Origin: Candidatus Multivoradales bacterium
Lineage (GTDB): Bacteria > Acidobacteriota > Thermoanaerobaculia > Multivoradales > JAHEKO01
Assembly: GCA_965224065.1 (NCBI GenBank)
Contig: CBDCYF010000005.1
Span: 2,006,695 to 2,070,694 of the forward strand
DNA length: 64,000 nt
Direction of reading: 5' to 3'
Shown here: piece after piece, positions 33,601-58,827 of the stretch
Layout of the letters: each line of letters starts with the position of its first letter
How positions within the stretch are numbered: position 1 is the first letter of the stretch
The notes under the pieces: model-generated
Told to the model about the DNA's origin: nothing
Database searches by the model: none
Seen by the model: only the letters and a program-made list of their open reading frames with translations
Position numbers and translations under genes: made by a program

Positions 33601-36600
33601 TCACGGCCTCGACCCCAGTGTGAGGGTCTTTCGCTTCTCGCCGACGACCCGCACCTGTTCGAAGATCTCGGCCGGGGCCCCCTTCACTCGCACCGTGTAA
33701 ACACCCGCCGGAACCGCCACCGGATCCCCACCGACCGCGCCGGTCGCCAGCACCGCCCCGTCGTGGTCCACGACGTCAAACGAGCGGCTGACGGCTGCCA
33801 CCATCGATTCCTCGAGCGAGCGAGCATCGCCGGCATCGTAATACCGCCCGCCGCCCAGTTCGGCCCATCGCCGAAATCGCGCCCGGGCGGCTTCCCGGTC
33901 GCTAGCGTCGACATCGAAGCCGACGATGTTGAGCTCCACGTCGTATCCGCGCCGGCGGAGCGCCTCGATCGCCGCCTCCACGTCGCCGCCGCACGACTCC
34001 TCGCCGTCGGTGACCAAGACCACCCTCTTGGGCCCGGGCCCCTCTCCGAGGTCGCTTCCGACCAGCTCCAGCGAGGCGGCAATCGGTGTCCCCGAGAACG
34101 GCTTGGGCTCGACCGCCGCCAGCACGCGGGCGGTCTCCGCGGCATCGAGCGGCCCGAGCGGCATCTCGAGATCGGTCCGGCAGGCTTTGGCTTTCCGATT
34201 GCCGAACACTCGCAGCGCGAACGGCGTTCCGGGGGAGAGCACATCGCTGACGAGCTGACGAAGCACCCGTTTGGCGACGTCGATGCGAAGCACGCCCCCG
34301 ACCTTTCGATACATGCTCCCGGAGGCATCGAAGATTACCTCGACCGATTCTCCGGCCGTGCCCGGCGCGGCACCATCGGTGGCAGCGGCGACGACCTCGA
34401 TGCTCCCCGGCCCCGCCGGCTCCTCAAACCCGGTCTCTACGAGAACGCGGTAGCTCTTGGGCCGGCGCAAGTAGCACGACGCTCGGGCAAAGCCGACATC
34501 AAAATGGCCGATGGTCCGGGCCGAATCATAGAAACCGCCCCCGACACCCGCCCAGCTCTGCATCAGATCCTGGCTGGCGGCCGACCTCGGCGAATCGTGC
34601 TCGATCGAGGGTGTGTGCATGGTGAAGATCTGCGGCGAGGTCTGTGCGAACGTCTTCCAGAGATCCGTCGTAAGCGCGTAGCCGTTGCTGAAAGCATCGG
34701 TAATGAGCACGATCGCCCTGGCGCCCGGCCTCTTCTCCAGTGCGACCCCGGCGGTCAACAGGGCCAGCTCCGAGTTGCTGGAGAAGGCCTTGGCCGTGTC
34801 GTGCCGGTTAAGCGCCGACATCACCTCTGCTGGATCGCCCGACCATTCCTCGAGCAGAAATCGCGGCGGCTTGTCGAACGGCAGCAAGTTGACGACCTCC
34901 CGGCCGGGCTTGACGGCGCGCGCGAACTGAGTCGCCGCGGCACGGATAAAGTCAGTGTACGGGCCGATGCTGGCGCTGGTGTCCCAGGCAAGCACAACCG
35001 AGCGCGGTGGCTCCTCCAGCCGCAGGTAGTAGCTGCCCGGGGCGACATCAGCGGTCAGCTCGACCCGCTGGTAGGACCGTTCGGACTCGCTCTCCACCGG
35101 GCGTCCGCGCGGGTCTTGCAGACTCCACGAGAACGCGACCGCCGGATCGCCTTGCAGGGTGATGCGAATGGCGTTGTGGCCTTCAGGAACCTCCACCCGG
35201 TACCAGTCCACGTCCTCCTCCACAAGCACCCGCCCCGACAACGCCCGGCCTGGCGACAGCGGCTGAGCCCGCTCCCGGCTGTCGTTGTGATCGGCCTCGG
35301 CGAGAACGGACGTTCCCGAAGCCGGCCGGCCGGCCTCGAAGATCGCGCGGCGGCTCATGAATCCCCACTCGCCGAGGATGGACCTGTAGTCGGCGTCCGC
35401 CCCCTGCTCGAAGATCCTCAGGGTCTCCGGGTACCGGTAAGGTGTCTGCGGCCGCAGATCCCCGGCGGTGAATCGAACAAAGCGCGCCCATGCCGGCTCG
35501 CCGAGCGTCAGGCGCTCGACACCGTCGCCTCCGAGCCGCCAGGTAGCCAGCGTCTCCCAGGGCCCCAACGGGCTCTCCGTCGAAGCGGCCACCTCGATCT
35601 CCTCAAAGCCCAGAGCCCTCGAGCTCCGGCTCTCCGACGGGACCCACTCGAAGCCGGTGATCCTGGCCGCCCGATCGTGGTGAAAGCCCACCACCCAGCT
35701 CGCGGTGTCCTGGTCGTCGGCCGTAGTCGCAAACGTCCGCTCCGCTGCGACCGAGAGGATCGGGTGCTCGGCCGATCCGACACCGATGACGGTCCCGAAC
35801 TCCTCGGTCCCAATCAGCGGATCGGACCAAGCGACATGGCCGCCGAGCGACGGCTGGGCAATGTCCCAGGGTTCGGAGCGCAGCCTGGTCCCGGCAGCGG
35901 CGACGAGCTTCCACTCCCCGAGCGCCACCCCGCGCCCTCCGCCGTGGCTGCTGCCGAGCACAAGTCTCGCGAACCGGGCCTCGACCGGCTCTTCGAACGC
36001 AAAAACCTGCTCGCCAGGAAGCGGCTCGAGACGGCCGGTGAGGACCTCCTCGAAACGCTTGCCGTCGAGCGATGTCGAGACGGAGAATTCGGCAAGCTGC
36101 TCAGTCGCGCCTTCGATCGAGCGCCCCAGCGGATGGAGCAGCGCTCCCCACAGCTCCACCGGTTCTTCCCCGGCCAGATCGACCGTGATCGCCTGCTCCG
36201 TCTCGAACCGAGTCCGGTCTCGCAGCGGGATCGCGAGCCCATCGAAAAGCTCCCCCACAAAACGATCCTCGCCTTCCGCCGCCGCCCCCAGCGCCGGCCA
36301 AGCGACGTTGAGCCCTCCCAGCAGGCGGTCGGGCAGGGGCCACGCCTCGCCGGCCGCGCGGGGCTCCGCCCCGCACTCCGGCTGCAGCTCCACCGAAGCG
36401 GTCGCGACCGCGCCGCTTGCGGTCCGGGCGGCAACCGTCAGCAGAACCGGCTGGTCGTCCCGGGCGTCCGGCAGGATCTCCACCTGCAGCGGAATCGCCG
36501 CCGACTGGGCGGGCCCGACCTCGACCACCTCGCGTAGCAACCGACCCTTCCATGCAGCATCGCTGGTGGCGACTTCAAAACGCAGCGTCTGTATCGTCCC

Positions 36601-38343
36601 GGTCAGATTCTGGACCCAGAGACCGAGGTCGAGGACCTGGGACTGTTGCCAGTAGGCGGCGGCTGAATCGATTCGCCCTTTGATCCCCATCACCACCGCC
36701 GGGGCAACGTCGCCGGCTTCCGCTTTCGACACCCGGTCGACATCCGCCATTTTCTCGGCCGGGGTCAGAAAGGGATCGAGCTGCTCGAGCCCTACTTGAT
36801 AGAAACCTTCGAAGGGTTCTCGTGGCCGGACCGAGATCCAGTGATCGCCGGGAAGCAGCCATCCTTCAAAAATCGCCGGTTCGCCGGGCGCGGAGCTCTC
36901 CGACCGGGTTCCGCCAGTCACGTCGAAGACCACGCGGCCGTCTTCCGGCGGTTCCACCCGGACCCGCACCGGTTGCTCGGCGGCCAGGTGAAAACGGTAC
37001 TGATCGACATCCCTCGGATCCGTCAGCAGCCCGATGCGTGGAGCGCCAACGCGCAAGGTGCCGGCCTGAGCGGGCAGGTGATTGGGCTCGAACTCGCTCA
37101 AACCGGGCGGACGCACGCCGGGGATCTCCACATCGCCCGCAAGGTGCCGCGACGCTTCGAGTCCGGCTTTGGAATCCGCCGGCCCGATGGCCACGATCTT
37201 GAGCAGATACTCCGAGTCCTCTCCCTCGACGGCGATGAAGTGCTCGCCGGGAAGAAGCAGAAGGTTGTCCAGCCGCACCCGGCGCTCACCCGAGGCGCCG
37301 GCGCTCGAACCGGCATTGCCCCCCGCATCGTAGTGGCGCATCGCCCGGACCGGCTGGTCTCTCGCCAGCACCTGCGCACGCCAGAGCATCGGCTCACCCT
37401 CGACCTCGAAACGGTAGACGTCGGTTTCAGCACCCACCAGTCGCCCACGGACCGTCCGTTTCTCATCGAGCGGAAACGCCCCCGCGATGGTGTCGTTCGG
37501 TTCGAGCTCGCGGCCGTCTTCTCCCTCGCCCGCCGCCTCGACTCGCAGGAGGTACGGCGCGGGGGTTCGGTCGGCACGGGCCAGCTCGATCACCAGCTCC
37601 CCGGCCGGCGAGGACAAGTCGTCGAGAACCATCCGGCCGGCCGCATCGGGCTTGCGCTCGGCCAACAGGCTCCCCTCAGCGTCCAGGACCTTGAGGCTGG
37701 TTCGCAAACCCAGAATGGTTTGCGCGGACAGGCGCCACGTGTGGGGTGCCTCCCCGGGCGGCACCGACCACCGGATGGCGTCGGAGGAGCCGGTCAGGTC
37801 CCCGGACAAGACGAACGCGCCGATCCGCGCGACCGCCTCTTGCGCCGGATCGCCGGGCTCTCCGCCGACCGCCTCCGGCAGCGCCCCGGCCAGCCTCAGG
37901 TCGAAACGGTAGGGACCTTCGCCGCTCCCGCCGACGCCGAGCAGGTAGCGGCCGGGCGCGAACAGCAGCGGCCCCGACTCCATCGACCGGACTCCCTGGA
38001 CATCCAGAGTAAAGACCTTGCTCACCGCCCCGCCGGGTTCGCCGGCCAAAAGGACATCCAGCTTTGTTCGCTGGCCCGGAACGCCCTCGAGCTCGAGCGT
38101 CCACAGCGCGGGGCTCTCGCCGGCGACAGTCCACCAGAAAAGATCTTGATCGCCGCTGCCGAGCTCTCCGGTGACGCACATGGCGACTTCGAGGCGCTGC
38201 CCCTCGTCGGGCGTGTTGTTGGGCTCGGTGTCGGCCGCGCAATCGGCGACTTGCCCCGCCGCCAAGCCCGGCGCGAGCACAAGCGCCAAAAGGCAGACCG
38301 ACATTCGGAGACCGCCCGGGAACCTCGCTGCGGGCCGAAACAC
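33601..38343 (-). CDS. 1580-aa secreted multidomain protein: N-terminal PPC-type repeats, two galactose-binding-like (F5/8 type C) domains, a further PPC repeat, and tandem C-terminal vWA domains
   Basis: The signal peptide is MSVCLLALVLAPGLAAGQ. Repeated E(P/F)N(N/D/H)T...D(V/Q)YRF modules are present. WxRFVRF/GEWKL patterns indicate the galactose-binding fold. The two vWA cores are VLAWDTSASIGPY... and VIFDASGSMYRKVGG...VVLVTDGEE. Confidence 0.7.
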   Translation of the reverse strand: MFRPAARFPGGLRMSVCLLALVLAPGLAAGQVADCAADTEPNNTPDEGQRLEVAMCVTGELGSGDQDLFWWTVAGESPALWTLELEGVPGQRTKLDVLLAGEPGGAVSKVFTLDVQGVRSMESGPLLFAPGRYLLGVGGSGEGPYRFDLRLAGALPEAVGGEPGDPAQEAVARIGAFVLSGDLTGSSDAIRWSVPPGEAPHTWRLSAQTILGLRTSLKVLDAEGSLLAERKPDAAGRMVLDDLSSPAGELVIELARADRTPAPYLLRVEAAGEGEDGRELEPNDTIAGAFPLDEKRTVRGRLVGAETDVYRFEVEGEPMLWRAQVLARDQPVRAMRHYDAGGNAGSSAGASGERRVRLDNLLLLPGEHFIAVEGEDSEYLLKIVAIGPADSKAGLEASRHLAGDVEIPGVRPPGLSEFEPNHLPAQAGTLRVGAPRIGLLTDPRDVDQYRFHLAAEQPVRVRVEPPEDGRVVFDVTGGTRSESSAPGEPAIFEGWLLPGDHWISVRPREPFEGFYQVGLEQLDPFLTPAEKMADVDRVSKAEAGDVAPAVVMGIKGRIDSAAAYWQQSQVLDLGLWVQNLTGTIQTLRFEVATSDAAWKGRLLREVVEVGPAQSAAIPLQVEILPDARDDQPVLLTVAARTASGAVATASVELQPECGAEPRAAGEAWPLPDRLLGGLNVAWPALGAAAEGEDRFVGELFDGLAIPLRDRTRFETEQAITVDLAGEEPVELWGALLHPLGRSIEGATEQLAEFSVSTSLDGKRFEEVLTGRLEPLPGEQVFAFEEPVEARFARLVLGSSHGGGRGVALGEWKLVAAAGTRLRSEPWDIAQPSLGGHVAWSDPLIGTEEFGTVIGVGSAEHPILSVAAERTFATTADDQDTASWVVGFHHDRAARITGFEWVPSESRSSRALGFEEIEVAASTESPLGPWETLATWRLGGDGVERLTLGEPAWARFVRFTAGDLRPQTPYRYPETLRIFEQGADADYRSILGEWGFMSRRAIFEAGRPASGTSVLAEADHNDSRERAQPLSPGRALSGRVLVEEDVDWYRVEVPEGHNAIRITLQGDPAVAFSWSLQDPRGRPVESESERSYQRVELTADVAPGSYYLRLEEPPRSVVLAWDTSASIGPYTDFIRAAATQFARAVKPGREVVNLLPFDKPPRFLLEEWSGDPAEVMSALNRHDTAKAFSSNSELALLTAGVALEKRPGARAIVLITDAFSNGYALTTDLWKTFAQTSPQIFTMHTPSIEHDSPRSAASQDLMQSWAGVGGGFYDSARTIGHFDVGFARASCYLRRPKSYRVLVETGFEEPAGPGSIEVVAAATDGAAPGTAGESVEVIFDASGSMYRKVGGVLRIDVAKRVLRQLVSDVLSPGTPFALRVFGNRKAKACRTDLEMPLGPLDAAETARVLAAVEPKPFSGTPIAASLELVGSDLGEGPGPKRVVLVTDGEESCGGDVEAAIEALRRRGYDVELNIVGFDVDASDREAARARFRRWAELGGGRYYDAGDARSLEESMVAAVSRSFDVVDHDGAVLATGAVGGDPVAVPAGVYTVRVKGAPAEIFEQVRVVGEKRKTLTLGSRP

Positions 38344-38352
38344 GACCGCTCC

Positions 38353-40758
38353 TCAGTGGCTGGCCGCCAAAGAGGCGCCCAGGACCCGGAGGAGGATCCC
38401 GACGATCCCCCGGATAATCCTCGAAAGCAGCATCATGGAGCCGCCGTAGGCGCCGACGCCGGTCACGGTCCCGGCAACACACAAACCCGCAGCGATCATG
38501 TCGAGAGACCGTGCGCTCGAGTAGACGCACAAGGCCCCGCTGATCAGATTCGCGACGATCAAATACTCGGTGATGCTCGCGCCCCAGCCGTTTTCGCCGA
38601 TGGCCAGGATCTCGCCGGTTGCGGGATCGAATCGCCACCACCCCCGGTCGCCGGTTCCTCCTCCAGCGTCCGTCTGGGGTGCGACGAGCCAGAATCCCCT
38701 CGCCGTTTCCCCCTCCGCGCGCGCCAACGTGTCCGGCGGAAACCGGGAGCCCTGGCTCCGAACGTCGTCCTCGTCGCGAAGCAGGACCCACGCATCAGCG
38801 CCGAGAGACGTCGAGAGCCGATCCGCCAGGTTGTCGTAGGTCCGGCATGGCAGCATCCCGCTGGTCGGATCGCAGGCCTCGTCGCCCAACAGCGCTTCCA
38901 GGTTCGAGTCGGCGACTCCCTGAAAGAGGGCCTGCCGGCCGTCGGCCGGCAGGGACGCCACGCGATTGGCCACGATGTCAAAAGCCTCCAGGCGCACCGG
39001 ATTGCCAGACGCATCCGTCCTTAGTTGCTGATGGAACGAGAAGACATTCGGCGAGCCCAGAAAAACGGACTCCCCCTCGCCGGACACCCCGTGCCGCAAA
39101 GCCTCGAGAGACAGAAGATCCTGGCGCGGCATTTCAGGCTCCCGACCGGCGTTCGGGTCGCGCGGCGCGCCTGCCGGACCCCTGACCGCGTCCAGGATCG
39201 CCTGCCGCTGTTCGAGCACCCTGCGGGTCACGAGATCGGATACATAGGCTTCGGACAGCCGCGAACCGACGATCAGGATCTCGGTCGTCCCCAGGACCGC
39301 CAGCCGCCATAACGCCCGATCCGTTTCGGTCTCGGCGGACCCGGGTCGGCCGCCGCTCCGGCGCGTGGCGGCTCCGATGAGATCGAAGATCTGCCGGCGG
39401 GTCACCTCCGGTTTCTCCCCAGGCACACGGATCTCATACTCGATCCACTCGGCCGTCAGCCGGCCCGGTTCCTTCACCACACCGGCCCCCTCCCCAGCTA
39501 CCCCACCCAGCCCGGCAATGGCGCCCGCCAGACCACCCGCCTTGCGCTCCAACGCCTTCCCGACCTGGGCCGTGGCGTTGAGCGCCTCTCTCGCCGGACT
39601 CAGCTCGCAGGTGTCCCTGTATGCCTGACTCATCACAGCCTGGGAGCCGATGTCCAGTACGGGGACCCAGAGGTCCTGCTCGCCCACGGTCTCCACGAGA
39701 CGCCGGCCCGGGTCCGCGGCGCTCGACAGATTCAGATCGGACGGCCAGCTCGCCGGAACGTGTCTCAGGGTCACGGGGCGGCCGACGAGCTCGGCGGGGG
39801 TCAGGGGCGCGCTCTGCAGCAAGGTGTGCTCCACCAGCGCCTCGCCGTTCCAACACTCGAGAATCAGCCGAATCCGGACTGTGTGCAGCACGTCCCCTCC
39901 GAGTTGGGAGAGCCTCTCGATTTCGACCGTTCGGTGAGCCGCGGTGGCCGCCCAGCCGACCGGTGCGTTGGGATAGCTCGGATCCAGATCGATCCATCGC
40001 CTGCCGTCCTGCACCCGTACCCACCAGTGGTCCTCGAGGGCGCCGATCTGGCGGCGGCGAAGACCTTCGGCGGCGCCTTCGGGCAGCGGACCGATGACCT
40101 CCGCCAGGAACTTCGCCTGTTCTCGCGTACGTTTCCGCGCCTCGGTCCGCAAACGTTCCACCGCCTCGGCGGTTTGCCGGCCGGCGTCGAGCAATCGAGG
40201 TTCGTCCAGACCGAACTCGGCGGAGTAGCGGTGCAGCTCGGCGAGGGCTGGCCCATCCGAACCATCCGCCTGGTTCCCGGCTCCGCCGGCCGGAACGGGC
40301 CGCGCGAAGGCCATCAGGTCGCTGGCCGCCTCGGGCAGCAGCCGACCGTTGGCGAGCCTCGTTTCATAGCCCACCTGCCGGAGCAGGGTGCTGAGCAGCA
40401 GGGCCCGATCGAGACTGTTGCCTCTGCGGTCCATCAACACACCCACCGGCCCGCGTAGAGCGCCACGGTAGGGCACGAGATGGGTGTTGTCGCGCACCCA
40501 TTCGAACAGCGGCTCGACCTCCGGATCGACCAGGTCCAGAATCGCCTCCGGATCGAAAGTGTCCCGCGGGATCTCCGCGGCTGCTTTTTCCAAAGCGTCA
40601 AAAACACGCTCGGTTTGCGTGACCCGAGCTTCGGTGGCCGCTGCGGCCTGCGCCTGCGCGACCCGAGCCGCCACCGGCCCCGGGACCAGAGCAACGTTCA
40701 AAGTCAGGAGACACAGCACCACGTGGCTGGTGAATCTGGACGCGATCGAGTGGTTCAT
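38353..40758 (-). CDS. 801-aa membrane-anchored transglutaminase-like-fold protein with Ser replacing the catalytic Cys; C-terminal TM helices
   Basis: An N-terminal signal/anchor is followed by GNSLDRALLLSTLLRQVGYETRLANG. This matches the transglutaminase-like core G-C-x-x-x-A-x-L-x-x-x-L-R-x-x-G-I-P-A-R-x-V-x-G, but with Ser at the nucleophile position. A large helical extracellular region follows, then 2-3 TM helices at the C-terminus. Confidence 0.55.
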   Translation of the reverse strand: MNHSIASRFTSHVVLCLLTLNVALVPGPVAARVAQAQAAAATEARVTQTERVFDALEKAAAEIPRDTFDPEAILDLVDPEVEPLFEWVRDNTHLVPYRGALRGPVGVLMDRRGNSLDRALLLSTLLRQVGYETRLANGRLLPEAASDLMAFARPVPAGGAGNQADGSDGPALAELHRYSAEFGLDEPRLLDAGRQTAEAVERLRTEARKRTREQAKFLAEVIGPLPEGAAEGLRRRQIGALEDHWWVRVQDGRRWIDLDPSYPNAPVGWAATAAHRTVEIERLSQLGGDVLHTVRIRLILECWNGEALVEHTLLQSAPLTPAELVGRPVTLRHVPASWPSDLNLSSAADPGRRLVETVGEQDLWVPVLDIGSQAVMSQAYRDTCELSPAREALNATAQVGKALERKAGGLAGAIAGLGGVAGEGAGVVKEPGRLTAEWIEYEIRVPGEKPEVTRRQIFDLIGAATRRSGGRPGSAETETDRALWRLAVLGTTEILIVGSRLSEAYVSDLVTRRVLEQRQAILDAVRGPAGAPRDPNAGREPEMPRQDLLSLEALRHGVSGEGESVFLGSPNVFSFHQQLRTDASGNPVRLEAFDIVANRVASLPADGRQALFQGVADSNLEALLGDEACDPTSGMLPCRTYDNLADRLSTSLGADAWVLLRDEDDVRSQGSRFPPDTLARAEGETARGFWLVAPQTDAGGGTGDRGWWRFDPATGEILAIGENGWGASITEYLIVANLISGALCVYSSARSLDMIAAGLCVAGTVTGVGAYGGSMMLLSRIIRGIVGILLRVLGASLAASH

Positions 40759-40935: not shown

Positions 40936-41580
40936 ATGACGCTTGTGCTCTCGATCGCAACTCTCGTTGCCGCCGTGCTGGGTATCTGGGGTCACTACAC
41001 AACCGAGTCCCGGCGCTGGCTGGCCTACGTCTTCCGGCCGCTGGCCGGGATCTTGATTCTCTGGCTGGCCCTGCTCGGCAACGAGGCCGCCGATCCACGC
41101 TATTACTGGGCAATCGCCGCCGGTCTCTTGTTCGCGCTCGTCGCCGACATCCTGCTGATGGTGCCGCGCGATCTCTTCGTCTACGGCCTGCTCGGGTTTG
41201 CGGCCACCCACGTCTGCTTTCTCTATGCCTTCACATCGGGAGTCGACTTCGCCGCCCACAAGTCGCCGTTTGCGCTCTTCGCCCTGGTCGCGGTGGGGCT
41301 CGTCGCCTTCATCTGGTCGGGCGTGGGCGTTTTGCTCCGGCTGCCGGTCGTCCTCTATGTCGCGCTGCTGGTGTCGATGGCCTCCCAGGCCTGGAGCCGC
41401 CACGCCGACTTGGCGACCGGCGCGACCCTTCTCGCGGCGATTGGGGGAGCGCTCTTCCTGAGCTCGGACGCGGTGCTGTCGGTCGACCACTTCAAGAAGC
41501 CGTTCCAGGCCGCGCGGCTCGCGGTGCTGTCGACGTTCTACGCCGCCGACTGGCTGATCGCGCTCTCGGTCAGCGGGTGA
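40936..41580 (+). CDS. YhhN-family membrane protein (lysoplasmalogenase/TMEM86-like)
   Basis: About 8 TM helices over 214 aa. YhhN-family patterns recur (LLGFAATHVCFLYAF...LFLSSDAVLS). Confidence 0.7.
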   Translation: MTLVLSIATLVAAVLGIWGHYTTESRRWLAYVFRPLAGILILWLALLGNEAADPRYYWAIAAGLLFALVADILLMVPRDLFVYGLLGFAATHVCFLYAFTSGVDFAAHKSPFALFALVAVGLVAFIWSGVGVLLRLPVVLYVALLVSMASQAWSRHADLATGATLLAAIGGALFLSSDAVLSVDHFKKPFQAARLAVLSTFYAADWLIALSVSG

Positions 41581-41660
41581 AGCGCTCGCCGCCGTACAAT
41601 CGGCCGGTGTCCACGTTCGGCCGTACATCCGAAGACGCACCACCGAGGCTCGGGCTGCCG

Positions 41661-41978
41661 ATGGCGGGCGCCGTCGCGCTGCTCGCCATGGCGTGCGGCG
41701 GAGCCAGCTCCGGCGAGACCGTCTACCGCCAAGTCTGCGCCTCCTGCCACGGCATGGACGGCGCCGGCGTCGCCGGCTCGGGCCGAGCCTTGCAAAACAA
41801 CGCCTGGATCCAGAGCCACACGGACACCGAGGCCGTAGAGTTGATCCTCGACGGCCGGCCCGCGGATCACCCCGAGAACGAGCTGGGAGTCGACATGCCG
41901 CCCCGGGGCGGTGACCCGTCGCTCAGCCACGCCGAAGCCCGCGCCATCGTGGCCTACCTCCGCACGCTGCAACCATGA
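41661..41978 (+). CDS. Small mono-haem c-type cytochrome, lipoprotein-anchored
   Basis: The lipobox LLAMACGG and the haem-binding CASCHG are present, and the distal Met lies in GVDMPP. I chose the ATG at 41661 inside the longer ORF. It overlaps the sulfatase start by 4 nt. Confidence 0.7.
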   Translation: MAGAVALLAMACGGASSGETVYRQVCASCHGMDGAGVAGSGRALQNNAWIQSHTDTEAVELILDGRPADHPENELGVDMPPRGGDPSLSHAEARAIVAYLRTLQP

Positions 41979-43408
41979 CGAGAAATCGAGTCCCGATCTG
42001 GACGATCCTGACGATCGTGGGGCTGCTCGGCGGCTGCTCGGCGCCACCGCCCGAGGCCCCCAACATCATTCTGATCCTGGTCGACGACCAGGGCTGGGGG
42101 GGCACCTCGGTGCCCATGCACCCGGAGATCGAGGGGTCCTATAGCGATTTCTACGAAATGCCCAACCTCGAAAAACTCGCCGAGGAAGGGATGCGCTTCT
42201 CCAACGCCTACGCCGCCCACCCCATGTGCTCTCCGACCCGGGCGGCCATCCAGACCGGGAAAGAACCCTCCCGGCTCGGCATGACCGACATCATCAACCG
42301 TCACGGCGCGTTCCGCGAGGGCAACCCGCTGATCCCGCCGCAAAGCCTCAAGGAGCTGCCCGCAGACGAGCTCACCATCGCCGAGCTGATCCAGCGCGAG
42401 CGTCCCGAGTACGCGACCGCCCACTTTGGCAAATGGCATCTCCGTGGCGGGGGTCCCGGCGCCAACGGCTACGACGAGCACGACGGCGACACCGGCAACA
42501 ACAGCTCGCCGCGCGGCCGCTCGCAGACCACACCCAACCCCAAGGACCTCTTCGGCATCACCGAACGCGCCAACGACTTCATGGCCCGTCAGGTCGAGGC
42601 GGGGCGGCCCTTCTATCTCCAGGTGTCCCACTACGCGCTCCACTTGCGGGTCCGGTCGCTCGCCTCGACGCGCGCCAAATACGAGAGCAAGCCCCGGGGC
42701 CGCTATCACTGGGACCCCGGTTACGCCGCCATGACCGAAAACCTCGACACGGCGGTGGGCCAGTTACTGGCCAAGCTCGACGAGCTCGGCATCGCCGAGC
42801 AGACCTATGTCGTCTACACCTCGGACAACGGCGCGATCCTGTCGTCCCCCGCGGGCCGGCAAATCAACGACAACTGGCCGCTGTCGGGCGAAAAGACCCA
42901 GGTGCGCGAGGGTGGGATCCGTGTTCCGCTGATCGTCCGCGGACCCGGAGTCGAGCCGAGCTCTTTCCACCACGGACCGGTGGTGAGCTACGACTTCTAT
43001 CCGACGGTGTGCGACTGGTTGGACCTCGATCCCGAGACCTGCGGCGACGTCGACGGTGGCTCGCTCGAAAGCGTTCTGACTGCGGGTGGACGGGGCACGG
43101 TTCGGCGTCCCCGCGAAGAGCTGGTCTGGCACTATCCCCACTACCAGCCGGAGCGGGGCACGACCCCCCAGACCGCCATCCGGCTCGGCGATCTCAAGCT
43201 CATCCGATACTATTTTCCGCCGGTCGAGATGCTGTTCGATCTGGCCAGCGACCCGGGGGAATCGTACGATCTGACCGCCCAAGATCCCCAGATGGGAAAC
43301 GAGCTCGGCCGACGCCTGGACAGCTATCTCGAGGACGTCGGCGCGCCCATGGTCCGGACGAACCCACAGTACACACCCCCCGCCGGCGAAGAGCCCGAGG
43401 CCGGCTGA
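41975..43408 (+). CDS. Type I (formylglycine-dependent) sulfatase, lipoprotein
   Basis: The lipobox is LLGGCS. The sulfatase signature CSPTRAAIQTG follows a metal-binding DDQGWGG, and the GKWHL motif is present. Confidence 0.85.
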   Translation: MTRNRVPIWTILTIVGLLGGCSAPPPEAPNIILILVDDQGWGGTSVPMHPEIEGSYSDFYEMPNLEKLAEEGMRFSNAYAAHPMCSPTRAAIQTGKEPSRLGMTDIINRHGAFREGNPLIPPQSLKELPADELTIAELIQRERPEYATAHFGKWHLRGGGPGANGYDEHDGDTGNNSSPRGRSQTTPNPKDLFGITERANDFMARQVEAGRPFYLQVSHYALHLRVRSLASTRAKYESKPRGRYHWDPGYAAMTENLDTAVGQLLAKLDELGIAEQTYVVYTSDNGAILSSPAGRQINDNWPLSGEKTQVREGGIRVPLIVRGPGVEPSSFHHGPVVSYDFYPTVCDWLDLDPETCGDVDGGSLESVLTAGGRGTVRRPREELVWHYPHYQPERGTTPQTAIRLGDLKLIRYYFPPVEMLFDLASDPGESYDLTAQDPQMGNELGRRLDSYLEDVGAPMVRTNPQYTPPAGEEPEAG

Positions 43409-43415
43409 GAACGCG

Positions 43416-44855
43416 ATGACGATCACCCGCCGCGGCTTTCTCGCCGGCGCCGGGGCCCTGGCCGCGTCCGCCTTGGGCTGCCGGAGCCCCGAGCGGCGCT
43501 GGGATGTGTGCATCATCGGGTCGGGGTTTGCCGGCACATTCCTGGGGCTCAGGACCGCGGCCGGCGGTCTCGATACCGTCATCCTCGAGGCCGGGACCAA
43601 GGGTGCGAGACCCCGCAGAGGGGCGGCCGGTGAGTTCTTCAAGTACCGGACCAGCGGCGAGATCGATTATTCGGTCAACGCCACCCGCGCCATCGTGGTC
43701 GGCGGGACGAGCACGCTCTGGGGCGGAGTGACCACCCGGCTCTGGCCGAGCGATTTTCGGCTCCAAACCGAGCACGGCCTGTGGGTCGACTGGCCGATCG
43801 GCTATCGGGATCTCGAGCCCTACTGGTGTGAGGCCGAAGAGCTCCTGAAAACAAGAGGCGGCGCCGTGGCGCCGGAGGCCGAGCCGCCGAGAGACTGCGA
43901 CTACCCCACGGGCTTCGAGCAGAGCCTGGAGAGTCCCGCGGTCGAGATCGAGGGCGCGGTGCGGCCGTTCTTTCGTATCGCCCGGTCGAAACGAAACGGC
44001 CGGGCCTTGAGGCTCGACGAGGGAGAGACCGAGGCCTTTGAGACCCACCGCTTGGGGACACTGCTTTCCGACCTTCAGGTCACCCGCATCGTGACCCTCG
44101 ACGGCACCTCGATCGACCACGTCGAAGCCCTGCCGATGAAGGGCGGCGAGCCGCAGATAATTCGCGCCCGCTACTTTGTCGTGGCCGCGGGTGTCATCGA
44201 GAGCGCCAGGCTTCTGCTGATGTCGCGCTCCCAGTGGTTCGAGAACGGCCTCGGCAACCAGCACGGCGAAGCCGGTCGCTACTTCACCGTCCACCCGAGC
44301 TATCAAACGCGCTTCCGCACCACCCGACCGATCAACGTCGGGGGCGGCCAGTTCAGGACCTGCGCGCTCAACGACGACTACAGACGCCGCGGCCTCAATG
44401 CCACCCAATTCCAGCTAGACGTCCAGCGGGCCGACGACCTGCGGTGGCGGGTCCAGCCCGAGATTGAGCCGCAGAGCGACAATCGGGTCACGTTGAGCGG
44501 CGCCACGGATTCCAGAGGAGTGCCCTTCCCCGATATTCGACTCACCTATTCCGATCGCGATCGGGAGACCTTCCGGCGCTGCCGAGCCTTTCTCGACGAG
44601 ACGCGGGCGGATCTGGGCGCGGTCGAGAGCACGGTTCGCGACCACGACCGCTGGCGCGCTCACCCCTCAGGGACCTGCCGCATGGGGTTCGACCCGACCA
44701 ACGGCGTCGTCGATGCCGACAACCGGGTCTTTGGTCTGAGCAATCTCTTTGTCTCGGGCGCATCGACCTTCCCCACCGCCGGCACCGCCAACCCGACCAA
44801 CACCGTCGTCGCCATGACCCTGCGTCTCGGCGACCACCTGTTGCGCCTCGCCTAG
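43416..44855 (+). CDS. GMC-family flavin oxidoreductase with Tat signal
   Basis: The Tat motif is TRRGFLAGAGALAASALGC, and the FAD-binding motif is VCIIGSGFAG. The C-terminal GMC signature is AHPSGTCRMG...VFGLSNLFVSGASTFP. Confidence 0.8.
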   Translation: MTITRRGFLAGAGALAASALGCRSPERRWDVCIIGSGFAGTFLGLRTAAGGLDTVILEAGTKGARPRRGAAGEFFKYRTSGEIDYSVNATRAIVVGGTSTLWGGVTTRLWPSDFRLQTEHGLWVDWPIGYRDLEPYWCEAEELLKTRGGAVAPEAEPPRDCDYPTGFEQSLESPAVEIEGAVRPFFRIARSKRNGRALRLDEGETEAFETHRLGTLLSDLQVTRIVTLDGTSIDHVEALPMKGGEPQIIRARYFVVAAGVIESARLLLMSRSQWFENGLGNQHGEAGRYFTVHPSYQTRFRTTRPINVGGGQFRTCALNDDYRRRGLNATQFQLDVQRADDLRWRVQPEIEPQSDNRVTLSGATDSRGVPFPDIRLTYSDRDRETFRRCRAFLDETRADLGAVESTVRDHDRWRAHPSGTCRMGFDPTNGVVDADNRVFGLSNLFVSGASTFPTAGTANPTNTVVAMTLRLGDHLLRLA

Positions 44856-45724
44856 GATCTCAACGACACGGCCCACGCCGAAGGAAGCCACCTCGGATCG
44901 AAGACAAACAGGTGAGCCAGGATCATTCCCAACGTGAGGTCCGCGAAGTCCACCACGAGGGCAATCCCGAGATGCATCACCAGCATCCACACCCACGCAA
45001 TCCGTCGGCCGGCCCGAAAAAGAGCAAGCGGCAAGGCCGCCAGCTCGCCCACCAGCGCGAACCAGGTCATCCCGGCGAGTATTGGGGCGGGCAAGCCCAC
45101 TAGCAGGTCGCGCACAAACCAGTCGCGAGCCAGCGGATTGGTAACCAGCATCGCCATTGCCTCACCGTTGAGCCAGGATGGCGCGGTCAACTTCATCACG
45201 CCGCTGTACGTATAGCCTGCCATCAGCGCGACAAACCCGGCGCGCCAGAGCCAGCGCGGCATCTGCCAAGATTCTCTGGGTCGACAGTGGCCCGGTGAAA
45301 GACCTTCGCCGGGTGGAACCAGCGCCACGAGCACCAAGAGAAGGCCCACATAGGGCAGTGCGGGGTTGGCAATCAGCAGGTTGCGGTTAAAAAGACACGT
45401 CCAGCCGTACCACAGCACAAGCGCGGTCACCGGACGCCAGTAACCCGCTGCGAACACCAGGGCGAGGAGACAAAGCAGCACCAAGGCCGCCTGGATCACT
45501 CCCGGCCCGTCCAGCACGGCAAGAAGGTTCGGGAACAGTCCGTGGATCGGGCTGACCGAGGGATCGGGGTAGACACCACGGTCGCTGAAAAGCTCGCTCC
45601 CCCACGGCACGAGGTGGGCGAAATGAACCGCCAGATAGAGACCCAGCAGCCAGCGAAACAACGCGAATTGATAGGCCGATTGTGGGACGGGAGCGCTCAC
45701 GAACATTCCGGCCGGAGTACCCAT
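44852..45724 (-). CDS. HTTM-domain membrane protein (vitamin-K-dependent gamma-carboxylase-like)
   Basis: A multi-TM protein whose N-terminal FRWLLGLYLAVHF region matches HTTM-domain proteins. I chose the start at the internal ATG (MGTPAGMF), which has a GGAG RBS. Confidence 0.6.
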   Translation of the reverse strand: MGTPAGMFVSAPVPQSAYQFALFRWLLGLYLAVHFAHLVPWGSELFSDRGVYPDPSVSPIHGLFPNLLAVLDGPGVIQAALVLLCLLALVFAAGYWRPVTALVLWYGWTCLFNRNLLIANPALPYVGLLLVLVALVPPGEGLSPGHCRPRESWQMPRWLWRAGFVALMAGYTYSGVMKLTAPSWLNGEAMAMLVTNPLARDWFVRDLLVGLPAPILAGMTWFALVGELAALPLALFRAGRRIAWVWMLVMHLGIALVVDFADLTLGMILAHLFVFDPRWLPSAWAVSLRS

Positions 45725-46176
45725 CGGTCGCTCCGTCCGCGGGTACGCGTAACGATCTCGACGGCAAGGTCCTCGGTTCGAGCCGGCAGGCCCAGCTCGC
45801 GGCGAAGTGGCCCGTCCGACGTCAGGCCATAGCAGTACACCGGTTGCCAAAGCTCCTCGGAGAGGCGTGGCGCATAGGCCAGTGCCGCTCCATAGACGTT
45901 CCGCCGGTTGTACGGACCCTTCAGGCGCGAGTAGACCTCCGGCGTGATCTCCAACCGTTTCTCATCGTTCTCGTCGCGCCAGACAAACGCGAAGCTCGAC
46001 GAGAAGGTCTCCAGACCCTCGACGTCGCTGAACACTTTTGGCCTCGGAGAGACACCCCAGGCCGCCGCGACACCCACCAACGGCCGCCATCCCGCGACGT
46101 CTCCGATCATCTGGGCCAACGCTACGACCAGCAGCGCTATGCCAGCCAGGTCACGCCAGCTCGTTTCAGACTTCAC
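45697..46176 (-). CDS. Membrane-anchored protein of unknown function (GTG start)
   Basis: The ORF has high GC3 bias and a single N-terminal TM helix (LAGIALLVVALAQMIG). It is bracketed by the HTTM and hydroxylase genes on the same strand. Boundaries are uncertain. Confidence 0.35.
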   Translation of the reverse strand: MKSETSWRDLAGIALLVVALAQMIGDVAGWRPLVGVAAAWGVSPRPKVFSDVEGLETFSSSFAFVWRDENDEKRLEITPEVYSRLKGPYNRRNVYGAALAYAPRLSEELWQPVYCYGLTSDGPLRRELGLPARTEDLAVEIVTRTRGRSDRWVLRPECS

Positions 46177-46993
46177 GGCGCGCTTCTCTTTCCCGAGATT
46201 CCTGACATGCCCAGCGTTTGGAACAACCGATGCAGGTCGGCAGAAAATGCAGTGGTGGGCGGCCGTCGGCACGCTTGCCGTTGACGTTGCGAAACACCAG
46301 CATGTCCTCGAACCGGTCCTCACGCCACGAGTCAAAGCCACAAAGCCGAGGGGATCGCCGGGCGTTCGCAAACGTCCCGAACATCATGTCGAAGACCGGC
46401 AGGTCGGCGAAGTTGTTGGTGTGGAAGCGGTACTTGTGATGGATACGGTGCGACTCCGGCCGCTGGATCAAATAACCGACCCAGTACGGCGTACGGATGT
46501 TCCAGTGGTAGAAAAACTCAGCCAGGGCGGTCATCAACGTGTACCAGGCCCCCGCTTGGATACCGCACCCGAGCAGGGTGTAGACAATCGCCGAGCTGAG
46601 AATCGAATTCGCCCAGATCTCCACCGGGTGTTTATAAAAAGACGTTAAGAGCTCGATGCGCCTGGGCGAGTGGTGCAGTTGATGAAAGACGTTCCAGACC
46701 CATCGCGATTCGTGACGCAGCCGGTGCCACCAGTAGTAGACAAACGTCGAGACGAGATAGGCGACAAGTGCCTGCGGGATGACACCGAGCCGCTCTTCCA
46801 GATGGAACAACGACGCTCGATCGAGCCACCGATCCCACGTCAGACCCGCCAGTAGAACGATCCCAAGCTGGACGAGATTGACGACGATGACTCGTGGGTA
46901 CCAAGCTCGAATCTTGGGAAGATCGTTGGCGGGCCAAAGCCGTTCGGTCACCCAGCAGCCGGCCGCGACGAGGATGACGAGCACGAGCGTCAT
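46166..46993 (-). CDS. Fatty-acid hydroxylase superfamily di-iron membrane enzyme (sterol desaturase/C-5 sterol desaturase family)
   Basis: Three histidine boxes, HRLRH, HQLHH and HRIHH, are present, in a 4-TM topology. Confidence 0.75.
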   Translation of the reverse strand: MTLVLVILVAAGCWVTERLWPANDLPKIRAWYPRVIVVNLVQLGIVLLAGLTWDRWLDRASLFHLEERLGVIPQALVAYLVSTFVYYWWHRLRHESRWVWNVFHQLHHSPRRIELLTSFYKHPVEIWANSILSSAIVYTLLGCGIQAGAWYTLMTALAEFFYHWNIRTPYWVGYLIQRPESHRIHHKYRFHTNNFADLPVFDMMFGTFANARRSPRLCGFDSWREDRFEDMLVFRNVNGKRADGRPPLHFLPTCIGCSKRWACQESREREARREV

Positions 46994-47093
46994 CTCGGCC
47001 GCTCTCTACAAAGAGACGCTCGTATACTGCGAGCCGGGACGATACGAGACACCGCACCCACAATATCGCGACCCCCAAACAAACGCGCTGTCG

Positions 47094-47966
47094 ATGAAGA
47101 AGGAACCGAGCATAGGCGAGCTCCGCACGGTGCTCGAAATGATCAAGTTCGAGCACACGCTCTTTGCGCTGCCGTTTGCGTTTCTGGGGATGCTCTTGGC
47201 AGCCGGCGGATGGCCCTCCTGGCGCGTGGTCGGTTGGATCGTGGTGGCGATGGTGGGGGCCCGGAGCGCGGCCATGGGGTTCAACCGGCTGGCCGATCGC
47301 CGGATCGACGCCACCAATCCCCGCACCGCCGACCGTGCCCTGCCCACCGGCCGCGTCAGCGCTCCCTTTGTTGCGGTGTTTGTCGCCGCCAGCGCCGGGC
47401 TTTTGATCCTGGCGGCGTGGCAACTCAACCCGCTGGCGCTCAAACTCTCGCCGCTCGCCCTGGCGATCGTGTTTTTCTATTCCTACACCAAGCGCTTTAC
47501 CCCGCTGTCGCATCTGGTCCTCGGTCTGGCCATCGCCGGCGCGCCGCTGGGCGCGTGGATCGCGGTCCGTGGCGACGTCACGCCCACTCCTCTGGTGCTC
47601 GCCGGAGCGGTCCTGCTCTGGGTCGCGGGGTTCGACGTCCTGTACGCGCTCCAGGACCGCGAGCACGATGTGCGCTCGGGGCTTCATTCGATCCCGGCAC
47701 GCCTGGGCGAGCGAGGGGCGCTGTGGGTCTCGGCGCTCTTCCACGCCGGGATGCTGGCGCTGCTCTGCCTCATACCGTGCATCTATCCGGCCCTCGGCGC
47801 CTGGTACTGGGTCGGAGTGGCGGGCTGCGCGGCGCTGCTCGTCTACCAGCACTGGATCGTCCGCCCGGGAGACCTGTCGAGACTCGACGCGGCGTTTTTC
47901 CGCGCCAACGGGATCCTCGCGCTGTGGCTTTTTGCCGCGACCGCGATCGATCTGTGGCGGGCATGA
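47094..47966 (+). CDS. UbiA-superfamily aromatic prenyltransferase (UbiA/MenA/MqnP-like)
   Basis: NRLADRRIDA is the first Asp-rich motif. The second, DVLYALQDREHD, is present, with ~8 TM helices. I chose the ATG at 47094 inside the longer ORF. Confidence 0.8.
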   Translation: MKKEPSIGELRTVLEMIKFEHTLFALPFAFLGMLLAAGGWPSWRVVGWIVVAMVGARSAAMGFNRLADRRIDATNPRTADRALPTGRVSAPFVAVFVAASAGLLILAAWQLNPLALKLSPLALAIVFFYSYTKRFTPLSHLVLGLAIAGAPLGAWIAVRGDVTPTPLVLAGAVLLWVAGFDVLYALQDREHDVRSGLHSIPARLGERGALWVSALFHAGMLALLCLIPCIYPALGAWYWVGVAGCAALLVYQHWIVRPGDLSRLDAAFFRANGILALWLFAATAIDLWRA

Positions 47967-51921: not shown

Positions 51922-53058
51922 ATGACGACGCGGAAGCCCATGATCCAGCCCGAGCGATTCCCCGAGGAGCTCCGCGGCCTGGCCCGCAAGGTCCGCGACG
52001 GCGCGCGTCTCTCGGGCGACGACGCGCTGCTCTGTTTCACCACGCCCCACCTGCTCCACCTGGGGCGGCTGGCGGATTCGGTGCGCCGGGGTCGGCACGG
52101 CAACACGGCCTACTTCAACATCAACCGCCACATCAATCCGACCAACATCTGTGTCTACACCTACGACTGCAAGTTCTGCAGCTTTGCGGCGCTGCCGGGA
52201 GAAGACCACGCCTGGAAGATGACCCACGAGGAGGTCTACGAGCACGCCGCCAAACAGGGGGGCGACCGGGTCACCGAGTTCCACATCGTCGGCGGGCTCC
52301 ACCCCGAGCTGTCGCTCGACTGGTATCTCGAGATGATGCGGGGCCTGAAGGAGCGGTTCCCCAGCGTCCACCTCAAGGCGTTTACCGCGATCGAGATCGG
52401 CTGGTTCGCCCAGCACGAGAAGATCTCGATCCGGGAGGTGCTCGAGCGGCTGCGCGAGGCGGGTCTCGGCTCGCTACCCGGCGGTGGCGCCGAGATCTTC
52501 CACTCCGAGGTGCGCGAGATCATCTGCAACGGCAAACTCGATGCCGCGGAATGGATCGAGGTCCACCGCACCGCGCACCAGATGGGGATCCCCTCCAACG
52601 CCACAATGCTCTACGGGCACGTCGAGAAACCCGAGCACAAGGTCGACCACCTGCTGCGTCTGCGCGAGCTCCAGGACGACACCGGCGGCTTCAACACCTT
52701 TATCCCGCTGGCCTACCACCCCGAGAACAACTACATGGGGCTCGAGTACCACACCACCGGCACCGAGGACCTGCGGCACCTGGCCACCTCGCGTCTGGTG
52801 CTCGACAATTTCCCGCACATCAAGGCCTACTGGATCATGATCAGCCCCAAGCTGGCGCAGGTGGCGATGAGCTTTGGCGCCGACGATTTCGACGGCACCG
52901 TGGTCGAGGAGACGATCTACCACATGGCCGGTGCAGAGACCGAGCAGCATCTGACCCGCGCCGAGCTCGAGCGCATTCTGCGCGAGGCCGGATGCGTGCC
53001 GGTCGAGCGCGACACTCTCTACAACCCCCTCGAACGACCCGCGGCGGCGACCGCATAA
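51922..53058 (+). CDS. Radical-SAM enzyme of the futalosine menaquinone pathway (MqnE aminofutalosine synthase / MqnC cyclic DHFL synthase family)
   Basis: CVYTYDCKFCSFA matches the Cx5CxxC cluster typical of MqnC/MqnE. The length and the conserved YGH and IPLAYHPEN regions also fit. Confidence 0.75.
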   Translation: MTTRKPMIQPERFPEELRGLARKVRDGARLSGDDALLCFTTPHLLHLGRLADSVRRGRHGNTAYFNINRHINPTNICVYTYDCKFCSFAALPGEDHAWKMTHEEVYEHAAKQGGDRVTEFHIVGGLHPELSLDWYLEMMRGLKERFPSVHLKAFTAIEIGWFAQHEKISIREVLERLREAGLGSLPGGGAEIFHSEVREIICNGKLDAAEWIEVHRTAHQMGIPSNATMLYGHVEKPEHKVDHLLRLRELQDDTGGFNTFIPLAYHPENNYMGLEYHTTGTEDLRHLATSRLVLDNFPHIKAYWIMISPKLAQVAMSFGADDFDGTVVEETIYHMAGAETEQHLTRAELERILREAGCVPVERDTLYNPLERPAAATA

Positions 53059-55248: not shown

Positions 55249-55325
55249 GCACCGATAGCTCAATTGGATAGAGCACCTGACTACGGATCAGGAGGTTGGG
55301 GATTCGAGTTCTCCTCGGTGCACCA
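55249..55325 (+). tRNA. tRNA-Arg (anticodon ACG), with encoded CCA
   Basis: The 7-bp acceptor stem is GCACCGA/TCGGTGC. The D-arm is AGCTCAATTGGATAGAGC. The anticodon stem CCTGA/TCAGG encloses loop CTACGGA. The T-arm is GGGGATTCGAGTTCTCC, and the 3' end is ACCA. It closely resembles E. coli tRNA-Arg(ACG). Confidence 0.85.
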
Positions 55326-55439
55326 TTTGTTTCAATCACTTACGGCTTCGTTGAACGTCGGCGTCAGCACTCGCCGGTGGAGCCCGAGGGTGCCAAAAAG
55401 TCAGCCGACTAGCTTAGCCTCCCTTTATACGGGCCGCGC

Positions 55440-55740
55440 GACATCGATTTCGCCTTCTGGATCACATCCGGTGTGGGCTCGTAGGCTTTGGCGATCTCGC
55501 ACTCTCTCTTGTTTCTCGTCTTCACAAGTCGCCGGATAAGCTGAACCATCAGCAGCAGGATCTGATCGACTACCTGCGAGAAAAGAATCGGATCCTGCGG
55601 AAGCATCTTGGCTCCAGCGTCTTCGGCTCACGGATGAGCAGTGCCGTCGCCTTGCCGTTCGAGGCAAGGTGCTCGGACGCAAGCGCCTTGACGAGACCGC
55701 CGGACCCCAATCTAGACCCCCAGTGTCCCAAGCGTGTCGG
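55440..55740 (+). pseudogene. Frameshifted N-terminal remnant of a DDE (integrase-core) transposase
   Basis: One frame reads DLIDYLREKNRILRKHLG. A +1 frame continues KRLRLTDEQCRRLAVRGKVLGRKRLDETAG. Together these match the conserved N-terminal HTH/leucine-zipper region (…LRHQL.VL.RQ…RPRLRPADRALLAAL…) of a widespread transposase family. No catalytic domain follows. Confidence 0.45.
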
Positions 55741-55913
55741 CGGATTGCTCAGCTACTACCGGCGCGAGGCCGCGCCACCTGAGCTGTGGGCCGATTTATT
55801 TGCGCCCTGCGGACGGCGACGCTGTTGAGCGCAGTTGGGAAGGAAGATGCTAGACTCCCTCTGACTCCTATACAGATAAGGTCTTCCTAACCGCCCGAGG
55901 AGGTGCAACAGGA

Positions 55914-56699: not shown

Positions 56700-56714
56700 A
56701 GTAAGGCAACGGTT

Positions 56715-57764: not shown

Positions 57765-57803
57765 TGGCCTCGAATTACCTTGCCGCAGTTTTTTGATGGA
57801 GAA

Positions 57804-58400: not shown

Positions 58401-58827
58401 CGGCTCTTCTTTAGTAGGTTCGGCGTCGCCAATAACTACCGCGTCCACGTGCTTCATGACACGCAAAAAGGCCCTGTGTCAAGAGATCTGCGCTGTGCGT
58501 GCTCCCGTCCTATCCGAAAATTGGATCATGCATAACTTGTTCTCTCGCCCGCGACCCGAAAACTCCGGCGCCCCGCCTCTTCAGGCCGGTTGAGTCTTAC
58601 GTTTATTGACGGCTCTCCGCGTCGAGGCTAATCTGTCGTCAGATATCCGACCCTTCTAGAGGAGACGGAGATGAGGCTCTGTGGCGGAGTCTCCGCTGTA
58701 GAGCCTGCTGGTTTTTGGGATCGCGTCCGCGCCGGGACACTGTAAACGACCGTCGCTGTTCGACGCTTGCCCGACAGAACCCCGCCGGCTGGTCCGTCTA
58801 ACCCCAGAGAGGAGGCAAAGCAAAATC

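Follow-up and report, generated by a model that had tools for sequence, protein, structure and literature searches.

The stretch of DNA analysed here (the window) is 64 kb of the genome of Candidatus Multivoradales bacterium (contig CBDCYF010000005.1, positions 2,006,695 to 2,070,694 of the forward strand), and the subject is a compact run of three genes within it that encode a c-type cytochrome, a formylglycine-type sulfatase and an oxidoreductase of the glucose-methanol-choline (GMC) family dependent on flavin adenine dinucleotide (FAD). A sequence-only reading of the stretch had assigned the genes to these three families, and the assignments are correct by Pfam matches and motifs. Each gene is the sole example of its kind within the window, and all three products are on record as called genes of a 3.99-Mb contig, without names, in a public protein collection. 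The genes, together with a neighbouring YhhN gene and the motifs discussed below, are located as follows (window coordinates):

41661–41978, + strand: mono-haem cytochrome c gene, 105 aa as called (open reading frame (ORF) and Pfam)
41736–41750, + strand: haem c attachment motif CASCH, the sole CXXCH in the cytochrome c (read from the sequence)
41975–43408, + strand: Cys-type formylglycine sulfatase gene, 477 aa (ORF and Pfam)
42227–42241, + strand: formylglycine motif C85-S-P-T-R89, with Cys85 the residue converted to formylglycine (aligns with CSPTR of 9fo1)
43416–44855, + strand: GMC-family FAD oxidoreductase gene, 479 aa (ORF and Pfam)
43425–43442, + strand: twin-arginine motif T-R-R-G-F-L, within TRRGFLAG (read from the sequence)
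43479–43481, + strand: lipobox Cys22 of the GMC protein (read from the sequence)
43518–43535, + strand: FAD-binding motif G-S-G-F-A-G (G35, S36, G37, F38 and G40 invariant)
44661–44792, + strand: region of the catalytic pair, from His416 (HPSGTCRMG) to Asn459 (TANPT) (aligns with the C-terminal catalytic region of 8hdd and 6a2u)
40936–41580, + strand: YhhN-family membrane protein gene (lysoplasmalogenase family), 214 aa (PF07947, 2.6e-35)

The stop codon of the cytochrome c gene and the start codon of the sulfatase gene share the sequence ATGA at 41975–41978, and the sulfatase stop (43406–43408) is separated from the GMC start codon at 43416 by 7 nt. The translational coupling claimed earlier is borne out by the overlap and the tight spacing, with the second gap corrected from 8 to 7 nt, and from this same-strand spacing we infer that the three genes are co-transcribed. 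The YhhN gene, on the same strand, ends 80 nt before the ATG annotated for the cytochrome c (or less, given the alternative starts described below) and is probably a fourth member and the first gene of the operon, giving a unit YhhN–cytochrome c–sulfatase–GMC. The GMC loci from the genome scan yielded no YhhN homolog. The gene 5′ of YhhN is divergent, and the gene 3′ of the GMC gene (HTTM family, 44852–45850) runs convergently, with a 4-nt overlap. A scan for consensus promoters and terminators, uninformative in this 67% GC DNA, gave no sigma-70-like promoter and weak terminator-like sites only.

The GMC protein matches GMC_oxred_C (PF05199, 1.3e-25), with weak N-terminal matches to FAD folds. 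Its N-terminus reads MTITRRGFLAG...ALGC, in which R5 and R6 are invariant in the 23 closest relatives and present in at least 90% of a 28-sequence alignment, and Cys22 is kept in 21 of the 23 and 22 of the 28; the protein is most likely a lipoprotein exported by the twin-arginine translocation (Tat) pathway. The earlier proposal had been made to depend on a functional FAD site and, judged by its motifs, the FAD site and the catalytic pair are intact, because GSGFAG, Glu58 (28/28 relatives), His416 and Asn459 (both 28/28 and 23/23) are invariant. Cysteines are present solely at positions 22, 32, 138, 161, 316, 389 and 421.

An AlphaFold model of the GMC protein (pLDDT 84, pTM 0.86) is matched best by Foldseek to 8jej and 8grj, a fructose dehydrogenase and an FAD glucose dehydrogenase (E ~1e-33 to 1e-32, TM 0.77), with bacterial pyranose oxidases and C-glycoside 3-oxidases (7qfd, 7dve, 8qve) forming the second-closest structural group. 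Choline oxidase is much more distant in fold than these sugar dehydrogenases and pyranose oxidases. The best PDB sequence matches are the alpha subunit of FAD glucose dehydrogenase (2e-39) and the large subunit of fructose dehydrogenase (~1e-30 to 1e-28), and the nearest relatives by sequence and by structure are all sugar-oxidising enzymes. At the position of His105, the covalent-FAD residue of the Burkholderia cepacia FAD glucose dehydrogenase (BcGDH), the window protein has Leu101 (43716–43718), and the residue is His in 17 of 28 and 18 of 23 relatives; judged from this alignment position, the family seems to be split into covalent and non-covalent flavin subclades. Leu101 is common to the window protein and the relatives P0002, P0021 and P0022. 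The closest GMC relatives are from Acidobacteriota/Thermoanaerobaculia-like metagenome genomes.

The sulfatase matches PF00884 (2.7e-42, residues 29–350) and SGSH_C (3.7e-10), and has a lipoprotein signal with the lipobox LLGGC. Among solved structures it matches best 9fo1, which is AMOR_S1_16A, an exo-sulfatase of subfamily S1_16 acting on kappa-carrageenan (E = 2.8e-82, residues 24–472), and four of its six top PDB matches are S1_16 members (9fo1, 6ust, 7oza, 7oz9; PMC11760155). The segments LVDDQGW and TSDNG align with D18–D19 and D263–N264 of the AMOR_S1_16A metal site (PMC11760155), and the S1_16 relatives closest to it are exo-acting sulfatases of galactose (Gal) and N-acetylgalactosamine (GalNAc) sulfates (PMC11760155). 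The closest sequence homologs (P0124 and P0126, 56–57% identity) extend at the C-terminus into an additional ~210-residue domain, for which no Pfam match is on record and which the window protein does not have. Neither a formylglycine-generating enzyme (FGE) nor an anaerobic sulfatase-maturating enzyme (anSME) is recognised within the window; its single Cx3Cx2C ORF looks RlmN-like, judged by the N-terminus only, and the radical-SAM gene scanned against Pfam gives a match to CofH/MqnC.

The cytochrome c matches PF00034 (1.9e-13) and PF13442 (1.8e-11), and it is the window's sole cytochrome c homolog and its sole CXXCH ORF with a coding-like GC content at third codon positions. Homologs with 45–53% identity are 120–140 aa long, have a classical lipoprotein signal ending in AACGG, and share the motif GVDMPP[KR]GG (GVDMPPRGG in the window protein), the Met of which is predicted to be the distal haem ligand of a class I c-type cytochrome. 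The window protein retains the cysteine as ...AMACGG and is a probable lipoprotein, although its signal peptide as read from the annotated ATG has merely 11 residues and no charged n-region. In-frame GTG codons at 41607 and 41577, the latter overlapped by the YhhN stop, would extend the signal; the start is uncertain, and either may be the true one. Export signals had been claimed for all three proteins, correctly so by motifs read directly from the sequence, and since all three signals are of the lipoprotein type the proteins would co-localise.

Relatives of the GMC protein were gathered from species-representative genomes, metagenome contigs and exact-protein look-ups, and 42 loci from other organisms are ortholog-like (at least 38% identity over at least 300 residues). 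Orthologs with 41–55% identity repeatedly adjoin PF00884 proteins that lack C/S-x-P-x-R and are often divergently transcribed. These loci include a clade with 54–55% identity (L001–L004, L082/83, L088) as well as L005, L014 and L016, with positions such as:

L001, 6526–8007, − strand: threonine-type PF00884 gene
L005, 9526–10926, − strand: threonine-type PF00884 gene
L082, 4471–5856, − strand: threonine-type PF00884 gene
L082, 7562–8881, + strand: threonine-type PF00884 gene
L082, 10854–12185, − strand: threonine-type PF00884 gene

The nucleophile position in these neighbours is threonine, within the motif T-x-P-S-[HV]-x-S-x-x-T-G-x-x-P-x-x-H-G, which we take to resemble the nucleophile motif of NPP-type phosphodiesterases, and by this motif they are probably phosphodiesterase-type enzymes. 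In L082 the GMC gene is surrounded by genes for four threonine-type PF00884 paralogs, a PF01663 protein and an LtaS-like protein. The GMC clade tends to neighbour ester hydrolases of the alkaline phosphatase superfamily, which fits a logic of hydrolysing an ester and oxidising the alcohol released, and the pair of GMC and threonine-type PF00884 proteins is uncharacterised. The idea that these PF00884 proteins are oxidised 'clients' of the GMC enzyme was dropped, their motif appearing NPP-type phosphodiesterase-like. A true sulfatase adjoins a GMC gene at one other place among 166 loci: a Woeseiaceae metagenome-assembled contig (L023, 1626–5268) has same-strand genes for a small hitch-hiker subunit with a Tat signal, for a distant GMC alpha subunit sharing 31% identity with that of the window and, 119 nt downstream, for a Cys-type formylglycine sulfatase (CGPSR).

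The reading we tentatively prefer is that the trio forms a lineage-specific periplasmic module for the desulfation of a small sulfated sugar and its oxidation by the GMC protein, with electrons passing from FAD to the mono-haem cytochrome c. In such a module the three lipid-anchored proteins would sit on the periplasmic face of the membrane, where the S1_16-like exo-sulfatase would strip sulfate from a small sulfated carbohydrate and the GMC flavoprotein would oxidise a hydroxyl of the desulfated or a related sugar. The reduced flavin would pass electrons directly, without an Fe-S relay, to the lipoprotein cytochrome c, and this in turn to a terminal oxidase or reductase. This module is preferred because of the gene spacing, the co-localising signals, the CSPTR motif of an S1_16-like sulfatase and an intact GMC enzyme with sugar-oxidising relatives, and also because the GMC clade adjoins esterases, a GMC gene and a sulfatase are paired in L023, and the bet and slf operons (below) offer precedents. 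We infer that the sulfatase and the GMC protein share a substrate, that it is a sugar, and that the cytochrome c is the acceptor for the GMC protein.

Several findings weigh against this module. At the 42 ortholog-like GMC loci there is no formylglycine sulfatase within 3 kb and no credible c-type cytochrome within ~2.5 kb (0/42), and the complete trio was found in no other sampled genome. Weak jackhmmer 'sulfatase' matches at the distant loci L028–L079, in Gemmatimonadota and related groups, were left out by a score cut-off. The nearest GMC relatives (64%, 52% and 51% identity) have neither a sulfatase nor a cytochrome c gene adjacent, two of their contigs being short; the neighbours of the closest one (P0002, 64%) are a kinase, an acetyltransferase and a toxin-antitoxin pair, and P0021 and P0022, on short contigs, have no partner genes. 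Two homologs of the sulfatase, with 54% and 50% identity, lie on long contigs; the genes around them encode proteins such as a rotamase, epimerases, a protease and a BNR-repeat protein, with no GMC or cytochrome c gene at either locus. Three of the four cytochrome c homolog contexts examined have the gene as the last of a nosDFYL (nitrous oxide (N2O) reductase) cluster, and in the fourth it follows the gene for a 348-aa two-domain multicopper oxidase. Co-conservation of the three genes, on which the sequence-only reading had also staked its proposal, is therefore not observed, and the trio, found in a single genome, resembles an assembly peculiar to one lineage and not a conserved system.

The proteins themselves add further points on this side. 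In BcGDH a loop with Cys212, Cys218 and Cys222 holds a 3Fe-4S cluster that mediates electron transfer from flavin to haem (PMC6719666); the window GMC protein has no counterpart of the loop, and its unaligned segment (residues 166–241) is without cysteine. The signature residues of S1_16 are, in AMOR_S1_16A, the pocket-closing Trp79, His125 and His149 (PMC11760155), and in the window sulfatase His125 is kept (GKWH) and Trp79 and His149 are replaced by Ile and Asn (PMC11760155). S1_16 is thus the nearest SulfAtlas subfamily by PDB matches, but the placement is a best-hit one, with membership and specificity not firm because of these two replacements. Among the Pfam-scanned ORFs within ~10 kb there is no glycoside hydrolase, SusCD/TonB component, sugar transporter or regulator, and no follow-on enzyme such as a lactonase or aldehyde dehydrogenase was identified nearby among the scanned ORFs. 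The ORFs that did give matches encode YhhN, a transglutaminase-like protein, a VWA protein of 1580 aa, HTTM, FA_hydroxylase, UbiA and a carboxylesterase, and a GlpD-like gene and an MqnC/CofH-type radical-SAM gene lie slightly farther out; the surroundings are membrane, lipid and quinone genes. The locus does not look like a glycan-utilisation locus, which leaves room for a non-carbohydrate substrate. A dedicated periplasmic route for a sulfated substrate, as proposed in the sequence-only reading, is plausible, with the adjacency of the genes in this one genome as its only support and no glycan-utilisation genes nearby.

The cytochrome c homologs, all of them lipoproteins, are encoded at:

L168, 5001–5396
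L174, 4001–4432
L176, 4001–4399
L171, 5001–5378

The nos and multicopper oxidase contexts suggest a family of electron donors to copper reductases. Because these are its usual contexts, the family looks, from gene neighbourhoods, like general periplasmic carriers and not like dedicated partners of GMC enzymes, and the dedicated partnership implied in the sequence-only reading is not supported. A number of CXXCH ORFs near GMC genes were rejected as partner cytochromes: those in L082/83 and L004/L089 were judged by their coordinates to be wrong-frame or N-terminal-extension artefacts, that in L102 is not cytochrome-like when read, and that in L098, on the opposite strand at a distance of 1.7 kb, encodes a multihaem TPR protein.

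Much of the same evidence favours an operon of convenience, in which the genes would be co-transcribed because all encode envelope proteins needed under one and the same condition, with the sulfatase and the GMC/cytochrome c pair acting on unrelated substrates and the cytochrome perhaps a general carrier. No pair of the three genes is co-conserved among the 42 GMC loci, the two sulfatase homologs and the four cytochrome c homologs, many relatives' GMC loci lack a sulfatase or cytochrome c partner, and the cytochrome family is normally tied to N2O reductase or multicopper oxidase genes. An ATGA overlap followed by a 7-nt gap is however typical of functionally linked genes, and the GMC clade so repeatedly adjoins esterases of the alkaline phosphatase superfamily that chance alone is an unlikely reason for the esterase partner seen here; an operon of convenience is a real possibility, which we rate only slightly below the module. 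The substrate might instead be a non-sugar ester, by analogy with betC/betA or slf: an ester of an amino alcohol or of a lipid head group, choline-O-sulfate for instance, would be hydrolysed and its alcohol then oxidised by the GMC protein, YhhN would supply related head-group products, and the orthologous GMC enzymes beside threonine-type phosphodiesterases would handle phosphate esters of the same alcohol. The position of YhhN directly upstream on the same strand would suit this, as would the lipid and membrane surroundings (HTTM, FA_hydroxylase, UbiA, carboxylesterase, GlpD-like), the NPP-like threonine-nucleophile PF00884, PF01663 and LtaS-like proteins beside GMC orthologs, and the precedents of the bet operon (PMC6189696, PMC12442346) and the alkyl sulfate slf operon (PMC3346939). 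Such a substrate is unlikely, given that the sulfatase falls far below the choline-sulfatase cutoff with carbohydrate sulfatases as its best structural relatives, that the GMC protein falls far below the BetA cutoffs with a fold nearer to sugar dehydrogenases than to choline oxidase, and that the operon has no aldehyde dehydrogenase.

Two further possibilities have considerably less in their favour. The GMC protein might act in reversed or parallel order, oxidising a still-sulfated glycoside (e.g. at C3) to enable elimination or cleavage, with the sulfatase acting on another position or on the product; that pyranose oxidases and C-glycoside 3-oxidases are its second-closest structural group would be in keeping with this, but no lyase, isomerase or deglycosidase of keto-glycoside pathways is seen nearby, and the probability of such an order is very low. 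The GMC protein and the cytochrome c might otherwise constitute a periplasmic formylglycine-generating system that oxidises Cys85 of the Sec-exported sulfatase after export. In its favour, GMC enzymes turn CH-XH groups into carbonyls, the sulfatase gene lies between two redox genes, and neither FGE nor anSME is recognisable in the window. Elsewhere, though, GMC orthologs either have no PF00884 gene nearby or stand beside threonine-nucleophile PF00884 enzymes that need no oxidation, an association that itself argues against the GMC protein as a formylglycine maturase, and all of its structural relatives act on small sugars, such that this is the most improbable of the readings; were it true, FGE and anSME would be joined by a third, previously unknown way of maturing sulfatases.

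If the trio does cooperate as the desulfation–oxidation module, electrons would be taken from sulfated sugars at the cell surface without import, and the periplasmic 'incomplete oxidation' strategy of acetic acid bacteria would be extended to sulfated substrates and to a different lineage. It would also provide a first function for a widespread, uncharacterised clade of Tat-lipoprotein GMC enzymes without an Fe-S relay. The arrangement is that of a single genome, and its chief use is as a lead for assaying this clade.

The remainder of the window has additional features. Two very large secreted proteins are encoded directly upstream (33601–40758, − strand), one of 1580 aa with VWA, F5/8 type C and PPC domains and the other a transglutaminase-like protein of 801 aa. 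A UbiA-family prenyltransferase gene (46779–47966, + strand) and the CofH/MqnC-type radical-SAM gene (51922–53058, + strand) may, by their Pfam families only, indicate menaquinone synthesis by the futalosine route. A tRNA gene (55249–55322) is followed by ~2.5 kb of low GC content (0.51 versus ~0.66) within 55249–58466, and the three ORFs of this low-GC stretch (55914–56699, 56715–57764 and 57804–58466) have no Pfam match and may be a small inserted island.

In sequence and fold, the flavoproteins closest to the window GMC protein are those of the Gluconobacter japonicus fructose dehydrogenase and of BcGDH, GMC dehydrogenases that deliver electrons to cytochrome c (PMC6719666), and as in those complexes the window protein is most likely Tat-routed to the periplasm and has a c-type cytochrome gene in its operon. 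The precedent of cytochrome-c-linked GMC enzymes invoked in the sequence-only reading holds insofar as these are the nearest characterised relatives, and does not extend to the 3Fe-4S relay. Leu101 replaces the histidine (His105 of BcGDH) that bears the covalent 8-alpha-histidyl FAD, and the window GMC protein is ~60 residues shorter and bears its own Tat signal, with no upstream gene for the hitch-hiker gamma subunit (the small Tat-signal subunit) of those complexes. Their cytochrome c subunit is a tri-haem membrane protein, whereas the window cytochrome is a mono-haem lipoprotein of about 105–133 aa. The window GMC protein is not a member of these cytochrome-linked complexes, a group that also takes in gluconate 2-dehydrogenase, because it lacks the 3Fe-4S loop, has Leu101, and is accompanied by no hitch-hiker subunit and by a one-haem cytochrome. 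The cytochrome itself resembles the lipoprotein cytochromes c of nos clusters in its 45–53% identity, lipobox and GVDMPP[KR]GG motif, and differs in that its gene precedes those of the sulfatase and the GMC protein, with no nos or nirK gene among the window ORFs scanned. The sulfatase has in common with the SulfAtlas S1_16 enzymes AMOR_S1_16A, BT3057, BT3796 and HhSulf the CSPTR motif, the DD metal site and the GKWH histidine.

Pairing of a sulfatase with a GMC enzyme is known from the bet operons, in which betC encodes a sulfatase whose product is the substrate of the GMC alcohol oxidoreductase encoded by betA (PMC6189696, PMC12442346). As in the window, the betICBA choline-O-sulfate operon combines a formylglycine sulfatase of the alkaline phosphatase superfamily with a GMC enzyme, but the window enzymes carry export signals and a cytochrome c gene is present, with neither BetI nor a betaine aldehyde dehydrogenase. 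Against the choline-sulfatase equivalog, with its cutoff of 433 bits, the window sulfatase reaches 109.6 bits; the BetA models, with cutoffs of 605–732, give 47–52 bits for the GMC protein. The proposed slf operon of the Psychrobacter plasmid pP62BP1 likewise has adjacent genes for desulfation and then GMC oxidation of the released alcohol (PMC3346939); its sulfatase is a class III alkylsulfatase of the metallo-beta-lactamase type, whereas that of the window is a formylglycine enzyme, and slf goes on to encode an aldehyde dehydrogenase and an acyl-CoA ligase but no cytochrome c. A full-text literature search for a trio of sulfatase, GMC oxidoreductase and cytochrome c gave no relevant paper. 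As read from its sequence, the window locus appears to combine the sulfatase/GMC and the GMC/cytochrome ideas using different parts: a periplasmic S1 sulfatase, a Tat-lipoprotein GMC enzyme free of Fe-S, and a mono-haem lipoprotein cytochrome.

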